From assembly GCA_000165345.1 (NCBI GenBank), contig CM000429.1, positions 96,001-160,000 of the forward strand: DNA of 64,000 nt, given 5' to 3'. Numbering within the stretch: position 1 is the stretch's first letter; each line of letters opens with the position of its first letter. Below are positions 37,646 to 48,229 of this stretch, piece after piece. The position numbers and the translations under genes are program-made. Under the pieces are notes generated by a model that was not told the DNA's origin, ran no database searches, and worked only from the letters and a program-made list of their open reading frames with translations.

Positions 37646-40600
37646 TTAAATATCAGCTTCTTCAGCTTCTTTATTAATATCATCTATTTGTTGTTGTATT
37701 TCTTGGTTGAGAATTTTATCTTCAGTAGTTTTTTTTGCCCTCTGACCAAAATCACGTTGCAAAAAGTCGTCAGAATCACTTTGGTAGTCTCCTTCATCTG
37801 TAGTTATATCAATATTTGTGCTAGGTTGTTGGTTTAAATCAGAAGGATATCCTGAAGTGATAGTTTGCCCTGGAGCTTGTGGGGGTGTTGGTGGCGTTGG
37901 TGTTGGAGTTGGTGGAAGTGTTGGTGGTGGAAGTGTTGGTGGTGGAAGTGTTGGTGGTGGAAGTGTTGGTGGTGGAAGTGTTGGTGGTGGAATTGTTGGT
38001 GTTGAAATTGGTGTTGGTGGAAGTGTTGGTGGTGGAATTGTTGGTGCTTTTGGAGTTGGTGGGAGTGGTGGGAGTGGTGGGAGTGGTGGGAGTTTCGGTA
38101 GTGTTGGAGATGGTGGAGATGAAGGAGATGGTGGAGTTGGTGGGAGTGTTGGAAGTGTTGGTGTTGAAATTGTTGGTGTTGAAATTGGTGTTGGAGCTGG
38201 TGGAGTTCCTGCAGGACCCGATATTACCGAAGCTCCTTGTTGTATTGGTGAAGCTGGCTTTAAGCCTGATGATGTAGTTGCCCCTGAATGACGCATTTCC
38301 TTTTCCTTTTCAAGAGCTTCTTCATGTGCCTTATTTAAATCAACACTGCTTGAATCGGTTAAAATTCCTTTAATATCATCTCCTTCTCCGCCAAGCTCTT
38401 CCAATAACTTATCTTCAACCTCTTCAGGGGTAGGAGATAATGGGCTTGGAAGTGTTGGAGATGGAACTCCTGGGGCTGTTGGAGGTGGTGAAGACGGAAA
38501 TGCTGGCATTGGCGGAGCTGGTGGAGATGGTGAAAGTGTTGGAATTGGAGGCGGTGGAGGTTGGTATTCAGGTTTTGGCGGAATTGGTGAGGATGATGGT
38601 GGTGTTGGAATTGGAGACGATGGAAGTGGGTATCCAGGCATTGGTGGAGATGGTGGAGGGAATAATGGTGGTGCTGGCACTGGCGGAGGTGGTGGGGAAA
38701 ATGATGGTGGTGTTGGAATTGGAGACGATGGAGGTGAGCGTCCAGGCATTGGTGGAGATGGTGGAGGGAATGATGGTGGTGCTGGTGCTGGCACTGACGG
38801 AGGTGGTGGGGAAAATGGTGGTGTTGGAATTGGAGTCCCTGCAATTGGCGAAACTTCTGCAGGTGAAGCAACTCCTGAAACTTGTGAAGCTGGAACCGTT
38901 GGACTTCCTGCAGCAATTGGAGTCCCTGCAACCGTTGGACTCTCTGGAGTCATTGGAGATCCTGTAGCAATTGGAGTTCCTGTAGCCGTTGGACTTTCTG
39001 GAACTGATGAAGAAATTTGAGTTTCTGGAATTTCTAAAGTAGGCTTTGATTCTTTAACTAAAGAAGTACCCAATTTTTTTCCAAGCCCTAATCTTCTTTT
39101 CTTTCCGTTTGTTTTTGCTTTTTGCTTTTTATCACTCCTTGACTTCTTTCTGCCTGCTCCCTTTTTCCCATGCTTTCTAGAAGCAACTCCTTTACCTTGC
39201 TCTGCATCTGATGACAACTCCGAGCTTGAATATTCTTTGTTCCCAGTCTTCTGTATTCTAGACCTTAGTCTATCCAATACCTTTCTTTTTTTCAATTCCT
39301 TTTGTTTAGACCATCTTTTCTTGAATTTCTCTTGTTTCATCTCACTAATTATACTATTTGCAACCAAATCTATTATACTTTCGCTTGAACCTTCTGTTTT
39401 ATTATCTTCTAACTCCGCATTTTCTTTACCTACTTCTCCTTTTTTCCTATCCATCTCTTCTTTAATGGCGTTTTCCTTTTCTTTAGTTAAATCCAAACTA
39501 CTTGCACTTGTGTCAATTCCTTTAATATCATCACCTTCTCCTCCTAATTCTTCTAACAACTTTTCCTCTGATTCCCTTGCTGACTTTTCTGAACCCTCAA
39601 CTCTCACTGTAACTTCTCCTTTAGGTATTTTTCCTTTCTTCTCCTTGTACTTCTCTTCTTTGATGGCTTTCTCCTTTTCTTTAGTTAAATCCAAACTACT
39701 TAAACTTGTTTCAACTCCTTTAATATCGTCACCTTCTCCTCCAAACTTTCTCAATAATTCATCCTCAGACCCCTTACTTCCCTTCTTAATTCCTTTCTTA
39801 CTTCCCTTTTTACCTTCCTTCGGCCTTCTTGATATTGTAATTCCTCTCTTGGTCTTCTCCTTCTTGGTAGCTTTCTCCTTTTCTTTAGTTAAATCCAAGC
39901 TACTTGCACTTGTGTCAATTCCTTTAATATCATCACCTTCTCCTCCTAATTCTTCTAACAATCTTTCCTCTGATTCTCCTGTAGAGCCTTGTAAATAATC
40001 CCAAGTCTCATGTCTCTCAATCCTTGCCTTTTCCTTATTTATTCTCCTCATCCTATCTTCTTCCATCTTCTTCCTTCTATTAGAATCCAAAAGAGATTTT
40101 CTTAGTCTTGTTCTCGGCCAAGAAAACAATAATTTCCTTTTCAAAAACTTAATGGATTCCTCCATTCGTTGATTGTAGTATTTCTTTAATTGAATTGCTT
40201 CTTTAACATAAACAGAAATCTCCTCCCTTAGTTTCGTCCTAGCACTTGATATATTCTTACTCTTCTTTTGACCAGAAAGTGCTTTAAACTGTTCCAATTT
40301 ATCGCTTAATTCCGATCTTAATTTTATCATCTTCGCTCTAACACTTTCTGATTCTCTTTCATTCGTACTTGGACCAGTTGCTATCTCCCTATCCAAAATC
40401 ATTATTGCGTTGGAAATCCTGGAAATCATTAAAGAACCAGAAGGCCCTTGCTCATTTCCTGAACTGTCTGAATCACTAGTCAAATCAAAACTACCTATTT
40501 CTGAATCTCTACTTGCGTCACTTGTTTGAACATCGCTTGTATCTGTCATAAAACTATCCAAGTTTAATCCAGGAACAATGTTTTTCATTGTATTTAATAC

Positions 40601-43600
40601 CTCACTAAATTGCTCCTTCTGCTCTTCAAATTTCTTCTTCATATCACTAAAACGAGAAACAGCTAACCCTAATAACTTTATCTTTGTTGAAATCTTCTTT
40701 TCTAACTTTCTAATCCTAATATTATAAGCAGAAGTTCTTGCCCTCTCTCTCATTCTTGAACTGCTCTCTTCCGTTTCTTCAGTTACTATTACATTCAAAG
40801 AGTTTAATCTACTATTCAATAATTCTCTTGTATTCGATAATAAATACATATCAGAGTTTATTCTTTCTGTCGTTCCAATATATTCTGATAATTTTGCTAA
40901 TATCTTAGCTTGTCTTCTTGCCATTACCTGACATTTCTTTAAAATCTCTGAATTCAGCAGTGTATTGCTTCCAACTAGAGTAAGTGATAAGATTGCTAGT
41001 AAAGACTTGATTCCAGCTTCCAAACCATCAATATTTGTCTCAAAAACTTCCAATAATAATTTAGTTGAGACCAATAATTCGTTAGAAAGTGCAACACAGT
41101 GAACTCCTGCTCGAATAATATCATCTTGATAAGCAACTTCCTCTTCAAATCTTAACCTATCAAGATTTATTTGGCACTTATAGTAGTCCATAAGACTCTC
41201 TAATTTGTTCTCTTGTTGAACTGCTGTATTTAATGTTGAGTATTCACTTTCAAGCAAAACTTCATGTGACAATAATATCAACTTTTCCAAAGATAAAATC
41301 ATCAAAAAGTATGTTTGATTAACCCTGTAATAAATTAAAGTTTGATTAAACAATTCCAAGTTCCTTTTCAGCAATGACTCGTAACTACTTGCCATGACGT
41401 ATCGATTCATCTTTGCTTCACTCAAATTCATATCCTCCTTTCTTAAATTGACCATGATACCCTGACATTTCTTCTCAAGCCTACGATACTTTTTAAATTC
41501 TCCCTGTATTTTCTTCAATAAATCCTTGTAACTTTCAGAATCCATTTTATTCTTACTCTTTTGCTTAGATATCTCACCTTTCAACAAAGAGTAAAAAGAC
41601 TTCTTTGCTTTGCTTAATTCAGTCTTGCATTTCTTATATTTATTATGTATATTCTTTCTTACTTTATTTATTTTATCCAATTTCCTTTTAAAGTTCTTTC
41701 TAATTATTCTAGATTCAATCTCAAGTCCTTTTGTTACCATAATTGATCCTGTTAACTTCTTAAGACATTCTTGATATTGAGCTGTCAATCTCACTACGTC
41801 CGATAAAATACCCTTTGCGTCATCTAAACGATTTGTATTTACAATATCTGATAGCAGACCTTCTTTTAAATCAAGCATTCTATATAAACTACTTTGATAA
41901 GACATACACTCAGACCTCAAATTCTTTATCTTAGAACCTTCCAACTTCAATGAATGGAATATAGCAGCATAATCATTTTCTTCATTTATGTACCCAAATC
42001 TCTCTTCATCACTGCTAGCCATTATTTGTGTGCTTCTCTCACCGATAGAAGAGCTTTTTTCCAACTCAAATTCCTCTTGAAGGAAGAAATTAGATGTGAA
42101 TGGAAATGTTGGTCCAACTGTACTCTTTATTAAATTCTCTTCAAACTGTAATTCCGTAGGTGTTTCTAAAGCAGGAGGTTTATCTTGTGCTGGCTTTTTC
42201 TTCTTGGGCTTTGACGAGGAAGCAGGTTTAGTCTTTCTTTTCGGAGTAATATTTGATAATTGTATCAATTCTTGTCGTAAATAGAAGGGAATCTTCATAC
42301 CAGCTGGGCTGAAAGCTGAAGGTGCAGAGTGAATTTTGGCTGATAATAATCTCTTACGAGCTTTACTTCCAATAGGGAAAGCTCCAGTAGAAGATCTAAC
42401 TTTAGATTGTCCATATCGTGAATGTGAATCTAATAATGGATGTTTTTGACTTGACATTTTCTTTAACATTTTAACCCTCCTGGCAATAAGAGCACTCTTA
42501 ATCTTTAACTCTCTTTCAGTCTTAGGCTTTCTCTTAAGCTTTAATTTCTCAAGTAAAGCAAGCTTTCTAACAACACGAGCTGATCTTTTCTTGGAAACTG
42601 TTTTAAGGTTTGGAACATTTGTAATTAGAGAAAGTTCTAGTTTAGTACCAAAACTAGCCAAAAACGACTCATCTAAACGATCACTTTTAGTCTTCATTGC
42701 TCCCAATATCTTATTTGAAATACTCTTGGACTTGGATTTTCTCCATTTATTTAGAATTTCTAATCTTAATACGGATGAAAAAAATATAGGACGAGTATCA
42801 TCCGAGGTTGGAGCAACAAACATTTCTTGTAACTTTTGGATCTCCTTATATTTCTCAGAATTTAACTTTTTGAGTTTGTTATTTAAGATTTGTCTAGATG
42901 TTTGAATGCCTTCAATGAACTCGCCTTCAATATTGAATAAGTTTGGGATTGGTCCAGAATGTGATGGGATATCTGTTGGACTTTGGGAAGGAAATAAATA
43001 GGTATGTTTATTAAGTGCGTCCAGCATAGCATCGGTTTTGGCTTGTACATTACCCCCATCCAACAATTTCTGATTTTGGGAAAGAGGATAAGTCAAGTAA
43101 TCTCTTTGTCCTGGAACTTTGGAAAAGATATAACTTCCATCCAATTTATCAGAGTTGATTTCAAAGTATTTCTCGGCGTTATAAATTTCGTTTTCAACTG
43201 AACTTATTATAACCAATGGATCCAAAGAACATGCAACTTTTGATGTTGCAATTACCTGTTTGACAATACCAGTATGCATTGAGAATATATTTATCTTAAT
43301 TGGATCCCTATTCTTGAGCTCTGCAGTGAATTCTATGGTAACTGTTCCCAAAAGAGTCTCAGCTCCCTCTTCTCCACTAACAAACATCCCTGCAATAACA
43401 AACATCTCGACAGAATACTTCATTAAGGAAGAAGTATAGATGTTATAATCATCTAATTCACCAAACTTTCCAAACAAATACAAAAATTCTCTGGAAAGAA
43501 GATATCTAATATCTCCATAGCGATACATAGAAACCATTCTAATTACATCCAAACTCAGAAAATCCAAATTCCATGGTCTTGGACCGAATATCTGGATCTC

Positions 43601-45229
43601 TTTCCCAGTGTAACTTGCAGCCTTCAGTTTAATCCTTTTCTCGTCATTCTTCATGTTATTCCATCCTGCAATTGCTAAGCCTTCCCATTTTGGTACTGGA
43701 AGTTGGTTTTCTTGGTAATTTTCGAGATGTTGTTTCTCCATATTGTAAACATAGGTGTTTCCAGGGACGCTTCCACTTCTAACCCTCCTTTCAAAATTTG
43801 ACATTTTTGCTTTGGGAGCCATATTGCTTCTGAGCAACAATTTTGAATCATTTAATCTTTCTAATGAATCATTTTCTTCTCTAAGAACCACCTCTTTGGG
43901 TCTTTCTTTATCCTCACCTTTGTTAGGTTTAGGCAAAGATAAATTTGGTAATAAGTCTAATTCAAGGCCAAAATTTTTCATGTGGCTTATTAAAGTATCT
44001 CTTAATTCATCCAAAGTTTTAGTAGCTTTAATATCAAAAATCATTTCATTCCTCAAATTTGATGAGATATTTTTACTGTTGACCTTTATCAAATTCAGGC
44101 TGTTTTTTATATGTTCTTTTACCAGCCAGTCACTAACCTGGCCAAATCTATCGCTTACCAAAATATCGTTTGGATATCTTTTTTTTAAGCCTGGTCTGGG
44201 AACGAGATAAGAAGGACTTGAGTTGCATTTTATAACTAACATAATCTCTTCCATGTAATCCTTATTCCCGTAATACCCTGAATTTGTCTGGCTAGCATTC
44301 AAGCCTGAAGATTTACCATATTGTAGCCACCTTTCGCTAAGCCAAACAATTGATCCATCACATGGAGAAACAATATTCTCCATATGAGTTTTACCCTCCT
44401 TGGTAATTGAAGCTATCGCAAAAGGAACATTTTCCTTGACAAGTGTGCCCACACTTCCTGTTAAGCTCGCCCCAACATTCAGGTTGAGCTCTAGCTTAAG
44501 TTCTGAATCACTGTAAATAGGTTTAATTTCGGCAACATAACCACTCCTTAGAAAGGCATCCAATGAACTCAAAAGAGTTGATGATGAATTCTTATATTTT
44601 TTTGAATATTTGAAGAGTGCTGAAACATGAAGTAATCCTCGAAACATAATTGGTAGATAAGTATTTGAATCTACAACAATGTCATCCAGATCAATTAGAT
44701 TCATTTCTGGATTCTGTAAACTATAATCTCTCATCTTCCAAAACAAAAATCTTATGTCATCATGCTTAATGCCTCGATTCTTGAACAACTTTGTGCAAGC
44801 TAATATATTCGTTATAGACATATGAGTACTACCAGGCCCTAATATTCCACTATTTCCATTTTCATAGATACAAGGAGATCCCAAAAATATGCCTACTTGA
44901 ACCTCATCCCCAGTACTTTCCAAAATTTGGAGGTCAGTCTTCGAGCCATCCCTTAAATTATGCATTTCAGGCTCAACCAATCCTACAAGTAAATTGTTTC
45001 CAACAACAAGCTCTCCTCCTCCTAATATGGAGCCATTATATCCCATTTCAATATTATATTTGACATTTCCAGAGTGTACTATCTCAACATTTCTCTTTGT
45101 ATCAAATACAGTTATTAAAGGTTCATTACTTCCAGAGCTTGTACTCGGAGACTTTAACCCAATTCCCGTACAAAGACTCGAAAATAAGAACAATGTGACT
45201 GCGGTTGAAGTGAGTAAGAGTCTACCCAT
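37646..45229 (-). CDS. giant secreted repeat protein (2527 aa): signal peptide, ~1000-aa N-terminal region, long coiled coils, repeated EELGGEGDDIKGIDTSASSLDLTKEKEKA units, C-terminal polyproline (PPTLPPPTLPP) block and acidic tail
   Basis: ATG at 45227-45229, signal peptide MGRLLLTSTAVTLFLFSSLCTGIG. Continuous 2527-codon ORF. Nested nucleotide repeats at 37911-38005, 38590-38830 and 39460-39985. Confidence 0.6.
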   Translation of the reverse strand: MGRLLLTSTAVTLFLFSSLCTGIGLKSPSTSSGSNEPLITVFDTKRNVEIVHSGNVKYNIEMGYNGSILGGGELVVGNNLLVGLVEPEMHNLRDGSKTDLQILESTGDEVQVGIFLGSPCIYENGNSGILGPGSTHMSITNILACTKLFKNRGIKHDDIRFLFWKMRDYSLQNPEMNLIDLDDIVVDSNTYLPIMFRGLLHVSALFKYSKKYKNSSSTLLSSLDAFLRSGYVAEIKPIYSDSELKLELNLNVGASLTGSVGTLVKENVPFAIASITKEGKTHMENIVSPCDGSIVWLSERWLQYGKSSGLNASQTNSGYYGNKDYMEEIMLVIKCNSSPSYLVPRPGLKKRYPNDILVSDRFGQVSDWLVKEHIKNSLNLIKVNSKNISSNLRNEMIFDIKATKTLDELRDTLISHMKNFGLELDLLPNLSLPKPNKGEDKERPKEVVLREENDSLERLNDSKLLLRSNMAPKAKMSNFERRVRSGSVPGNTYVYNMEKQHLENYQENQLPVPKWEGLAIAGWNNMKNDEKRIKLKAASYTGKEIQIFGPRPWNLDFLSLDVIRMVSMYRYGDIRYLLSREFLYLFGKFGELDDYNIYTSSLMKYSVEMFVIAGMFVSGEEGAETLLGTVTIEFTAELKNRDPIKINIFSMHTGIVKQVIATSKVACSLDPLVIISSVENEIYNAEKYFEINSDKLDGSYIFSKVPGQRDYLTYPLSQNQKLLDGGNVQAKTDAMLDALNKHTYLFPSQSPTDIPSHSGPIPNLFNIEGEFIEGIQTSRQILNNKLKKLNSEKYKEIQKLQEMFVAPTSDDTRPIFFSSVLRLEILNKWRKSKSKSISNKILGAMKTKSDRLDESFLASFGTKLELSLITNVPNLKTVSKKRSARVVRKLALLEKLKLKRKPKTERELKIKSALIARRVKMLKKMSSQKHPLLDSHSRYGQSKVRSSTGAFPIGSKARKRLLSAKIHSAPSAFSPAGMKIPFYLRQELIQLSNITPKRKTKPASSSKPKKKKPAQDKPPALETPTELQFEENLIKSTVGPTFPFTSNFFLQEEFELEKSSSIGERSTQIMASSDEERFGYINEENDYAAIFHSLKLEGSKIKNLRSECMSYQSSLYRMLDLKEGLLSDIVNTNRLDDAKGILSDVVRLTAQYQECLKKLTGSIMVTKGLEIESRIIRKNFKRKLDKINKVRKNIHNKYKKCKTELSKAKKSFYSLLKGEISKQKSKNKMDSESYKDLLKKIQGEFKKYRRLEKKCQGIMVNLRKEDMNLSEAKMNRYVMASSYESLLKRNLELFNQTLIYYRVNQTYFLMILSLEKLILLSHEVLLESEYSTLNTAVQQENKLESLMDYYKCQINLDRLRFEEEVAYQDDIIRAGVHCVALSNELLVSTKLLLEVFETNIDGLEAGIKSLLAILSLTLVGSNTLLNSEILKKCQVMARRQAKILAKLSEYIGTTERINSDMYLLSNTRELLNSRLNSLNVIVTEETEESSSRMRERARTSAYNIRIRKLEKKISTKIKLLGLAVSRFSDMKKKFEEQKEQFSEVLNTMKNIVPGLNLDSFMTDTSDVQTSDASRDSEIGSFDLTSDSDSSGNEQGPSGSLMISRISNAIMILDREIATGPSTNERESESVRAKMIKLRSELSDKLEQFKALSGQKKSKNISSARTKLREEISVYVKEAIQLKKYYNQRMEESIKFLKRKLLFSWPRTRLRKSLLDSNRRKKMEEDRMRRINKEKARIERHETWDYLQGSTGESEERLLEELGGEGDDIKGIDTSASSLDLTKEKEKATKKEKTKRGITISRRPKEGKKGSKKGIKKGSKGSEDELLRKFGGEGDDIKGVETSLSSLDLTKEKEKAIKEEKYKEKKGKIPKGEVTVRVEGSEKSARESEEKLLEELGGEGDDIKGIDTSASSLDLTKEKENAIKEEMDRKKGEVGKENAELEDNKTEGSSESIIDLVANSIISEMKQEKFKKRWSKQKELKKRKVLDRLRSRIQKTGNKEYSSSELSSDAEQGKGVASRKHGKKGAGRKKSRSDKKQKAKTNGKKRRLGLGKKLGTSLVKESKPTLEIPETQISSSVPESPTATGTPIATGSPMTPESPTVAGTPIAAGSPTVPASQVSGVASPAEVSPIAGTPIPTPPFSPPPPSVPAPAPPSFPPPSPPMPGRSPPSSPIPTPPSFSPPPPPVPAPPLFPPPSPPMPGYPLPSSPIPTPPSSSPIPPKPEYQPPPPPIPTLSPSPPAPPMPAFPSSPPPTAPGVPSPTLPSPLSPTPEEVEDKLLEELGGEGDDIKGILTDSSSVDLNKAHEEALEKEKEMRHSGATTSSGLKPASPIQQGASVISGPAGTPPAPTPISTPTISTPTLPTLPPTPPSPSSPPSPTLPKLPPLPPLPPLPPTPKAPTIPPPTLPPTPISTPTIPPPTLPPPTLPPPTLPPPTLPPPTLPPTPTPTPPTPPQAPGQTITSGYPSDLNQQPSTNIDITTDEGDYQSDSDDFLQRDFGQRAKKTTEDKILNQEIQQQIDDINKEAEEADI
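37911..38005 (-). repeat. 15-nt tandem repeat (GGTGGAAGTGTTGGT)x5-6 encoding PPTLP units inside the giant CDS
   Basis: ggtggaagtgttggtggtggaagtgttggtggtggaagtgttggt... Confidence 0.8.
39460..39985 (-). repeat. three ~205-nt direct coding repeats (EELGGEGDDIKGIDTSASSLDLTKEKEKAIKEEK units)
   Basis: The string ttctccttttctttagttaaatccaa(a/g)ctacttgcacttgtgtcaattcctttaatatcatcaccttctcctcctaattcttctaacaa occurs at about 39462, 39665 and 39875. A degenerate fourth copy lies near 38360. Confidence 0.75.
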
Positions 45230-45926: not shown

Positions 45927-47015
45927 TTAGAATTTTTTGTTAAGCCAATCCATGCAAAGTAAGGTTATCATTGCATGTGGAGCAATCCTAAAATAGTACG
46001 TTAGGTACCCTTTAAAGAAACCACTTAGCCCTTGGCTCTTGTATATGTGTGTGATAACTTTACTATAACTATTCAAATTGTGATCTTCGTGTTTTGTTAT
46101 TAAAGACTCAGAATCCTCTTCATCAACTGTCTGTTTTTGTATTTGGGTCTTTATTGTGTCAAAAGGGAGGGATACTACGCTTGCAACGGCACCCGAAAGA
46201 ATGGATGAAAGAACCTTAACAAAAACTTGATTCTTTTCTGGTCCTGTCCATCTATAACATACTTCAATAAAATGGTCGAATGTGGCAAGCATTCCCATAT
46301 TAATTGACATTGCTCTAATTATAGAGGGAATGGATCCTTTCCACATTGAAAAGAAACCCTCTTCCTTAATTATATATTTCATTGCTTGTAATACATTTTT
46401 GTAGTATTTTTGTTTGCTTAAAGGTAACAGAGAATTGGTTTGTAGCCTGATAAGTGCTAAATCTACAGGATTGCAAATAAATGAAGAAATACCTCCAGAT
46501 GTTAACCCTATCAGGGCTTTAACTCCAAGAGACAGATTACATACTTTGTGGCCCTGATAAACCATTTGGTTCTTATAGTAATCACATAATAACCTGAAAA
46601 TTCCCAATCTCGCAGTCGAATAAGTTAGTTGTCTGATTAGACCTGCATCTAATCCCTTATAAAGCCCCAAAATTCCATTCTTGTTAACTATATCTCTAGC
46701 TAAAGAAAAAGGAGTTGGTTTTGAATATCCTTCAAAGTTCTGTAATTGCATTTTTATCTTAACAATGTCTATTGGTTGAATCTAAGAGTTGAAATTATAT
46801 ATTAAAGTTAATTAAAATAATAATATTAATTAAAAACGTATATATGGCCTCCACTTAGTTTTCATGACTCTCAGATTCACTAAAAGTCTGAAACCCTACT
46901 TTATAATCCTTTAACTTACACATATTGTCGCAATACATCCTGAAATTCCTCCATTTATGAAAGGCCTTAACACTCTAAACCATCTTCTTACCAACCCTTC
47001 TTTCAACAATATCAT
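45927..47015 (-). CDS. mitochondrial carrier family protein (SLC25; oxoglutarate/dicarboxylate-carrier-like), 316 aa, two exons: join(47015..46920, 46781..45927)
   Basis: The track ORF starts after the first PxDxxK motif. In-frame upstream codons read IQPIDIVKIK-MQLQ with an acceptor (ctcttAG) at the upstream TAG. Exon 1 (MILLKEGLVRRWFRVLRPFINGGISGCIATIC | GTAAGT) supplies TM1. Compare the oxoglutarate carrier (FLFGGLAGMGATVFVQPLDLVKNRMQLSGEG). Two more PxD/ExxK motifs (NPVDLALIRLQ, LPFDTIKTQIQ). 951 nt = 317 codons. Confidence 0.75.
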
Positions 47016-47465: not shown

Positions 47466-48229
47466 ATGTCATCTTTGAAGCACTCAATCCATAGGAGAGT
47501 GCACTTGGAGAGAGCGACTCCAGTGAACAGACTTCGATTTGGGATTTTAGAGCGTAAGAAAGACTATAAGATAAGAGCAAAAAGGTATCATGAGAAGGAA
47601 AATCTCTTAAAATCTCTATCAGAAAAGGCAAGAACAAGAAATCCAGATGAGTTTGACTTTGGTATGGTGAATTCCAGACTGGAAAATGGTAGATATAAAA
47701 AGATTGGATCTGACCTACAAAACGGCGGTCTTACAAGTGCTGAAGAGAGAAAGCTTGCGGAGAGTCAGAACCTGACATATGTCCATTTTAGAAAATCAAT
47801 TGATAATAAGGTAAGTTGTTTCGCTAAATTATTCCCTGTTTGTTTCTTTTGTTTATATTCTATTAGAAAATTGAAAGAATGGAAAAAGAGTTGACATTAT
47901 TTGGCCAAAATATGCAAAGAAGCCATATTTTTTTTGATGATGAGCACGAACAACTAGAAAGTGGTTCACAGAAAAATAAAAGCAATTCAAAGAAACTCAA
48001 AGATTTAGATTCACTTTCGAATTTAGAAACTATTCCAAAGGAAGTTGTCAAAAATATTACCAAATCTTATAAGATTTTTAATGATACAATTGCTAGATCA
48101 CAGAAACTAGAAAAAGTATCCAAGCATCTTGAGCTACAGAGAGACCTCAAATCTAAAGGAAAGAAGAAGAAGGTTGTAACAAAGAATGGAAATACTGAGT
48201 ATGTATGGTATCCAAAAAGAAAAAAGTGA
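47466..48229 (+). CDS. UTP11: U3 snoRNP / SSU processome protein UTP11 (235 aa), two exons: join(47466..47810, 47867..48229)
   Basis: MSSLKHSIHRRVHLERATPVNRLRFGILERKKDYKIRAKRYHEKE...RNPDEFDFGM...KSIDNK | GTAAGT ... tattAG | KIERMEKELTLFGQNMQRSHIFFDDEHEQ...YVWYPKRKK. Colinear with human and yeast UTP11 (MAAAFRKAAKSRQREHRERSQ...LLEKKKDYKLRADDYRKKQ...KNPDEFYYKM...HVFFFD). Joins track ORFs 47466..47894 and 47879..48229. 708 nt = 236 codons. Confidence 0.8.

Follow-up and report, generated by a model that had tools for sequence, protein, structure and literature searches.

The two-exon gene cgd1_600 of Cryptosporidium parvum and its putative oxoglutarate/malate-type mitochondrial carrier

Introduction

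Does a mitochondrial carrier gene of Cryptosporidium parvum begin where its uninterrupted open reading frame (ORF) begins, and what would its product carry? The question is raised by a window of 64,000 nucleotides (GenBank assembly GCA_000165345.1, contig CM000429.1, positions 96,001 to 160,000 of the forward strand; coordinates below are those of the window), in which an ORF of 274 codons, 45927..46751 on the minus strand, encodes a carrier whose first signature motif lies upstream of the ORF start. The locus is cgd1_600, on chromosome 1 of C. parvum (CPATCC_000370 in the IOWA-ATCC annotation). We conclude, with little room for doubt, that cgd1_600 is a two-exon, minus-strand gene whose splicing yields a 316-residue SLC25 carrier of the OGC/OMT and DTC subfamily. 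The 274-residue ORF is an artefact of the 2004-era annotation, in which ORFs were called without regard to introns. The two-exon structure is correct but already known; it is no addition as a gene-structure finding, because the 316-residue model has been deposited and a published paper has already described the short one as partial. Below, the evidence for the spliced gene is presented first, followed by that on the subfamily and on the substrate.

Results

Two exons on the minus strand

We read the window's minus strand between 47400 and 45600 and spliced the proposed exons together by computer. The parts of the gene, in the order of transcription, are the following.

46920..47015, minus strand: exon 1, 96 nucleotides, 32 codons, encoding MILLKEGLVRRWFRVLRPFINGGISGCIATIC, which forms the N-terminus and the greater part of transmembrane helix 1.
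46782..46919, minus strand: spliceosomal intron, 138 nucleotides, phase 0, donor GTAAGT, pyrimidine-rich acceptor CTCTTAG.
46782..46784, minus strand: in-frame TAG that limits the old ORF and whose AG forms the 3' splice-site dinucleotide.
45927..46781, minus strand: exon 2, 855 nucleotides including the stop codon, encoding residues 33-316, which comprise the end of helix 1, the first PxDxxK motif, and repeats 2 and 3.
46758..46775, minus strand: carrier signature 1, PIDIVK (residues 35-40), upstream of the old ORF start.
46749..46751, minus strand: codon of the internal Met43, start codon of the obsolete 274-residue model (ORF 45927..46751).
45929..45927, minus strand: stop codon of the carrier gene, from the sequence reading.

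Exon 1 starts with an ATG at 47015..47013 and ends with ATA TGT at 46920, GTAAGT following from 46919. Exon 2 opens at 46781 with ATT CAA CCA ATA GAC ATT GTT AAG ATA AAA ATG, which reads I-Q-P-I-D-I-V-K-I-K-M. A preliminary description of the window had set exon 1 at 47015..46920 before GTAAGT and exon 2 from 46781, had placed PIDIVK upstream of the ORF start, and had taken the TAG before exon 2 for an acceptor. All these coordinates are borne out by the sequence: CTCTTAG ends at 46782, and the TAG at 46784..46782 is the codon that bounds the ORF.

Both splice junctions are in phase 0, and the joined product is an uninterrupted protein of 316 residues. The sequence across the spliced junction is TTGCGACAATATGT followed by ATTCAACCAATAGA, and the tryptic peptide spanning it in the spliced model is VLRPFINGGISGCIATICIQPIDIVK. 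The intron has a GT-AG structure with a consensus-like donor, its removal restores a continuous reading frame, and each of its three frames is interrupted by stop codons (5, 9 and 2). Its G+C content is 25%; exon 1 has 35% and the window overall 30%. Over the 350 nucleotides scanned upstream of the acceptor, only a single GT follows an in-frame ORF that opens with ATG and runs for 15 codons or more. Other donors or starts in C. parvum were rejected, no second GT of this kind being present within that distance. The spliced junction was also searched in JGI metagenome contigs, where it gave 0 matches, as expected; this result is uninformative.

We also considered whether the N-terminus could lie further upstream, through an extra 5' exon or a different start, in the manner of the 376-residue model of C. 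canis (P0004), which has an N-terminal extension of about 60 residues obtained through an extra predicted intron. In C. parvum, however, an in-frame TAG lies 6 nucleotides upstream of the ATG at 47015, and just 450 bp lie between this ATG and the start of the divergent Utp11 gene at 47466. The C. canis extension aligns with nothing in the other 39 sequences of an alignment of 40 homologues (A1, used throughout), and exon 1 measures exactly 96 nucleotides in C. parvum, C. meleagridis, chipmunk genotype I and C. muris. An upstream extension like that of C. canis was rejected for C. parvum on the in-frame stop and the lack of homology, and we hold any longer N-terminus to be very improbable.

The intron is conserved within the genus

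The orthologous loci of C. meleagridis, C. muris, chipmunk genotype I, C. canis and C. felis were then compared with that of the window. Synteny is kept in all five species: Utp11 lies upstream, in divergent orientation, and a very large ORF follows downstream. An equivalent exon 1 was found in each of them. In the six Cryptosporidium species, the intron sits at an identical codon boundary, between AT(I/T/M)(C/I) and (I/V)QPID, and in each of them it contains stop codons in all three frames. Donors and intron lengths are as follows.

C. parvum (window): donor GTAAGT, 138 nucleotides.
C. meleagridis: donor GTAAGT, 138 nucleotides.
Chipmunk genotype I: donor GTAAGT, 130 nucleotides.
C. canis: donor GTAAGT, 101 nucleotides.
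C. felis: donor GTAAGG, 66 nucleotides.
C. muris: donor GTATGT, 55 nucleotides.

Compared with chipmunk genotype I, C. parvum gave identities of 0.86 (exon 1), 0.80 (exon 2), 0.67 (intron) and 0.68 (upstream DNA). Between C. parvum and C. muris, exon 1 was 0.49 identical and the intron 0.25. Judged by these values, exon 1 is kept as well as exon 2 or better, and the intron drifts like the upstream intergenic DNA.

Outside the genus, the Toxoplasma gondii orthologue has a first exon that is unbroken over residues 1-95, with no intron at the helix-1 position, and the Plasmodium orthologue is intronless. An ancient intron was therefore rejected: because the intron is found in neither the T. gondii nor the Plasmodium orthologue, its conservation is limited to the genus.

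Exon 1 completes the carrier

The contribution of exon 1 to the protein was evaluated on the Pfam profile of the family (PF00153 Mito_carr, cut-off 22.3 bits). Three stretches of the spliced protein match the profile, at 189.6 bits, compared to 152.1 bits for the 274-residue ORF, meaning that the 42 added N-terminal residues raise the score by 37.5 bits. Repeat 1 corresponds to residues 14-102, which lie on positions 4-93 of the 96 of the profile, and it is complete in the spliced protein only. The spliced structure is well beyond what chance would give.

The alignment of 40 homologues gave a similar picture at the level of single residues. Among exon-1 residues, P18 is nearly invariant and F19, G22, G23, G26, A29 and T30 are fully so; just past the junction Q34, P35, D37, K40 and Q44 are invariant as well. 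The three carrier signatures are PIDIVK (35-40), PVDLAL (137-142) and PFDTIK (238-243). A PX[DE]XX[KR]-type motif is thus found on the odd-numbered helices H1, H3 and H5, with the reservation that in H3 the K/R is replaced by L142. Because the L142 column is invariant in all 40 OGC/DTC homologues, the missing K/R of the H3 signature reads as a trait of the subfamily and not as a defect.

An AlphaFold2 model was built on the same alignment; it is a prediction, not a solved structure. The mean predicted local distance difference test score (pLDDT) was 83.7 and the predicted template-modelling score (pTM) 0.79. Six long helices were predicted, at residues 2-46, 76-107, 117-148, 182-211, 217-248 and 291-315, together with three short matrix helices, at 56-67, 162-173 and 269-282. 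Exon-1 residues form nearly all of helix 1, with a pLDDT of 90-94 at residues 11-30. Modelling was poor only at 250-266, where matrix loop 3 carries an insertion peculiar to the C. parvum clade. When the model was compared with the PDB using Foldseek, human UCP1, OGC-like carriers of Tetrahymena and ADP/ATP carriers were retrieved over 302-314 columns, with a probability of 1.00 and template-modelling scores of 0.66-0.72. The model confidently predicts an SLC25 fold, with six transmembrane helices and three matrix helices.

These results agree with the preliminary description, which had proposed that exon 1 supplies the first transmembrane segment of a canonical three-repeat carrier of 316 residues. 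The predicted helix 2-46 and the family-invariant residues of exon 1 account for the former, the three profile matches and the six-helix predicted fold for the latter. Absence of a third PxD/ExxK repeat would have spoken against this proposal; the repeat was looked for, and PFDTIK is present.

Records of the locus and the short model

The spliced protein of the window is residue-for-residue equal to a deposited C. parvum protein (P0123; QOY43569.1, WKS75958.1 and WRK30451.1). Among the homology matches was a 316-residue C. parvum "oxoglutarate/malate translocator protein" that covers 100% of the query. The DNA of the window is 100% identical to CP029780.1 and CP141118.1 over the gene and 2 kb on either side, and in both of these records the annotated gene occupies exactly these 1089 nucleotides and gives a 316-residue product. 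The 316-residue model is likewise found in KAL5370298.1 (C. parvum), in CUV04001.1 and others (C. hominis), in TRY53527.1 (C. tyzzeri) and in C. meleagridis (P0002).

The re-annotation of C. parvum from cDNA and RNA-seq by Isaza et al. in 2015 added 451 introns (PMC4637869), and its supplement reports, for CHUDEA1_600 against cgd1_600, an identity of 0.987 and a ratio of nonsynonymous to synonymous substitution rates (dN/dS) of 0.096. By our count, P0122 and P0123 are identical at 312 of 316 residues, which is 0.987, unlike 270 of 274. The identity value therefore suggests that the corrected length of 316 residues probably dates from 2015. For the junction of cgd1_600, support from RNA is indirect: the IOWA-ATCC annotation contains this model, and 100% of its introns are stated to have RNA-seq backing (Baptista et al. 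2022, PMC8744675).

One may nevertheless ask whether the 274-residue ORF could be the real protein, with transcription or translation starting at or near Met43 (46751) and the 32-codon upstream ORF being fortuitous or part of an untranslated leader. RefSeq and UniProt still list this form for C. parvum Iowa II (EAZ51319.1, XP_001388142.1, UniProt A3FQC0), C. hominis TU502 (XP_667733.1) and chipmunk genotype I, and by itself it reaches the 152 bits given above. Its product would however be devoid of helix 1 and of the first PxDxxK motif, both invariant in the family, and the protein-level conservation of exon 1 from C. parvum to C. muris, with the same intron boundary, also speaks against it. 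Moreover, it is the spliced model, not the 274-residue one, that newer evidence-based annotations carry, and King et al. 2020 described Cgd1_600 as an "oxoglutarate/malate carrier (partial gene)" (PMC7730227). We regard a genuine 274-residue product as highly unlikely. The short versions still circulate (XP_001388142.1, A3FQC0, C. hominis TU502, chipmunk genotype I), and cloning or modelling from them misses helix 1.

In chipmunk genotype I, the RefSeq entry XP_067202463.1 is the truncated 274-residue form, though the upstream DNA holds an intact exon 1 encoding MTLLREGLAKRWFKVLMPFINGGISGCIATIC, followed by GTAAGT and the 130-nucleotide intron (SCFC02000006.1, L003 2745..2970).

Subfamily and proposed transport

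To which branch of the SLC25 family does the 316-residue carrier belong? Among the best 120 matches of the homology search, all named ones outside the genus were OMT, DTC, SLC25A11 or 2-oxoglutarate/malate carriers, their identity being 37-46% across 86% or more of the length and their scores 209-265 bits. The top matches outside the genus were the 2-oxoglutarate/malate translocases (OMT) of Toxoplasma and Besnoitia (45-46% identity), followed by the dicarboxylate/tricarboxylate carrier (DTC) of Plasmodium (42-45%), a 2-oxoglutarate/malate carrier of Chromera, and many sequences labelled SLC25A11. The oxoglutarate/malate branch, proposed by eye in the preliminary description, agrees with these matches. 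For the Plasmodium DTC, the functional comparison rests on database names, as a literature search for transport data on this carrier, limited to the papers at hand, gave nothing. A sequence search of the PDB was rejected as a means of telling subfamilies apart: the PDB contains no mammalian OGC or DIC structure, and the best match was human UCP1, with only 105 bits.

By BLASTP against human carriers, SLC25A11 gave 172 bits and 32% identity, and SLC25A10 123 bits and 26%, a comparison that carries little weight. In the alignment of homologues, R82, Q83, Y86 and R90 (the two arginines being on H2), R188 (H4), N193 and R297 (H6) are invariant. The arginines R82, R90, R188 and R297 align with those of LLRQ, TTRLG, MARAV and YARLG of human SLC25A11, the presumed substrate contact points of OGC; this alignment too is weak evidence. 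The substrate contact points on H2, H4 and H6 we take to be R90/R98, R190 and R288 in bovine OGC numbering, following the contact-point model of Robinson & Kunji and OGC mutagenesis.

By homology, the carrier would sit in the inner membrane of the mitosome and, as the best-supported mechanism, would work by the standard SLC25 mode, a counter-exchange with alternating access. It may exchange dicarboxylates or 2-oxoacids between cytosol and mitosome, malate, oxaloacetate and 2-oxoglutarate being the likely candidates.

Divergence of the carrier in the intestinal clade

The preliminary description had stated that mitosomes of this type keep only a handful of carriers. The literature is in line with this, crediting C. 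parvum with eight SLC25 carriers (King et al. 2020, PMC7730227) or, when counted by Pfam, nine (PMC5146892); among them, King et al. characterised only CpAAC (PMC7730227). The substrate of the cgd1_600 carrier bears directly on the role of the mitosome because, of eight SLC25 carriers, only the ADP/ATP carrier has been characterised and because MQO may not be mitosomal. Intestinal Cryptosporidium species have no tricarboxylic acid (TCA) cycle (PMC5146892). C. bovis and C. ryanae lack cgd1_600, and MQO was lost there too (PMC7371110); this joint loss agrees with a malate-linked role.

In a 2025 study, however, hyperLOPIT placed both MQO-like proteins of C. parvum in nuclear or cytoplasmic fractions, outside the mitosome, and AOX was found dispensable (PMC12691609). 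The location of the MQO-like proteins weakens the textbook idea of malate import feeding MQO. The carrier itself has also diverged. We counted 103 alignment columns conserved at 85% or more among the 36 homologues from outside Cryptosporidium. C. parvum deviates at 21 of the 103, compared to 5 of the 103 for C. muris, which retains the TCA cycle. The deviations in C. parvum include R42K, G135C, D148N, K204I and Y260I.

Position 204 is the lysine of the cytoplasmic gate on helix 4. This lysine of the D-Q-x-K motif is present in 94% of the homologues from outside the genus and in C. muris, and it is replaced by isoleucine in C. parvum and C. meleagridis and by valine in C. canis. K204I is a clade-specific deviation, and membership of the subfamily, as judged by homology, stands, but the same kinetics should not be taken for granted. 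The C. parvum-clade carrier also bears an insertion of 8 residues in matrix loop 3, with a pLDDT below 50. Because 21 of the 103 conserved columns have changed, K204I included, the transport properties may differ from those of characterised OGC and DTC carriers.

These changes count in favour of a reading in which the gene model is right but the carrier of the intestinal clade is no longer an oxoglutarate/malate exchanger, having changed its substrate or its mode, or being in decay, because the TCA cycle is gone. The low-confidence insertion, the outright loss of the gene in C. bovis and C. ryanae, and the non-mitosomal location of the MQO-like proteins can be counted on the same side. On the other side, the presumed substrate-contact arginines are all kept, as are most signature motifs, the frame is intact, and the dN/dS of 0.096 between C. 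parvum and C. hominis indicates purifying selection. Because of this last value, the carrier gene is, as far as substitution patterns tell, constrained and not decaying. Overall we consider such a change or decay unlikely, while giving it far more weight than either the short protein or the longer N-terminus. Similarly, a repurposing of an OMT-type carrier in the intestinal clade (C. parvum, C. hominis, C. meleagridis and C. canis), for another metabolite or with another mode, is a minority option in our view. If it were true, the label "oxoglutarate/malate translocator" would be misleading about the metabolism of the mitosome. The reading that we retain is that of an OGC/OMT and DTC-type carrier.

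Neighbouring genes and models in other species

The divergent neighbour, Utp11 (47466..48229, plus strand), appears as two ORFs, of 142 and 116 residues. An intron of 56 nucleotides, GTAAGT...ATTAG, at 47811..47866 joins its exon 1 (47466..47810) to its exon 2 (47867..48229). The spliced protein has 235 residues, as has the annotated Utp11 (PF03998) of C. parvum, C. meleagridis and chipmunk genotype I. The downstream neighbour (37646..45229, minus strand) is an ORF of 2527 residues with no Pfam match on record in related loci; long tracts rich in proline occur in it, as does a motif of some 30 residues that recurs (LLEELGGEGDDIKGIDTSASSLDLTKEKE). Two C. parvum assemblies disagree on its annotated length, 2527 against 2516 residues.

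Two deposited models of the carrier in other species also deserve mention. In the C. felis model (P0006, 296 residues; JABXOJ010000027.1, L005 2700..3030), a 3' intron is predicted and the C-terminus does not align to helix 6, whereas the uninterrupted frame ends in FFRGYFTYYFRIAPHLTITLLCMDWLNKKF followed by a stop codon, with an intact helix 6; the 3' end of this model is probably wrong. In C. canis, the extension of about 60 residues (JAPCXA010000083.1, L004 2001..2345) depends on the extra predicted intron, and alignment suggests that the conserved start is probably MGRAELAGSW...

Comparison with known carriers

The closest reference is the deposited cgd1_600 / CPATCC_000370 model, with which the gene of the window shares the protein, the gene range and the flanking DNA; no difference was seen. 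CpAAC (cgd8_1210) is another of the eight SLC25 carriers of C. parvum, but it is of the ADP/ATP carrier subfamily and its substrate range has been measured (King et al. 2020).

With mammalian SLC25A11 (OGC), the carrier has in common the SLC25 fold, an H3 signature without K/R (PVDLAL here, PAEVAL in SLC25A11) and the arginines aligned on H2, H4 and H6, whereas identity is only about 32%. The likeness to Toxoplasma gondii OMT and Plasmodium DTC extends further: identity is 43-46% across some 95% of the length, the three repeats are laid out alike, and the signatures are of the PxDxxK, PADLAL and PFDxxK types. These two carriers nevertheless differ from that of C. parvum in three respects: they have no helix-1 intron; conserved positions of C. 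parvum carry clade-specific changes, K204I and D148N among them, alongside the 8-residue insertion in matrix loop 3; and the organelle context is not the same, the mitosome of C. parvum being without a TCA cycle.

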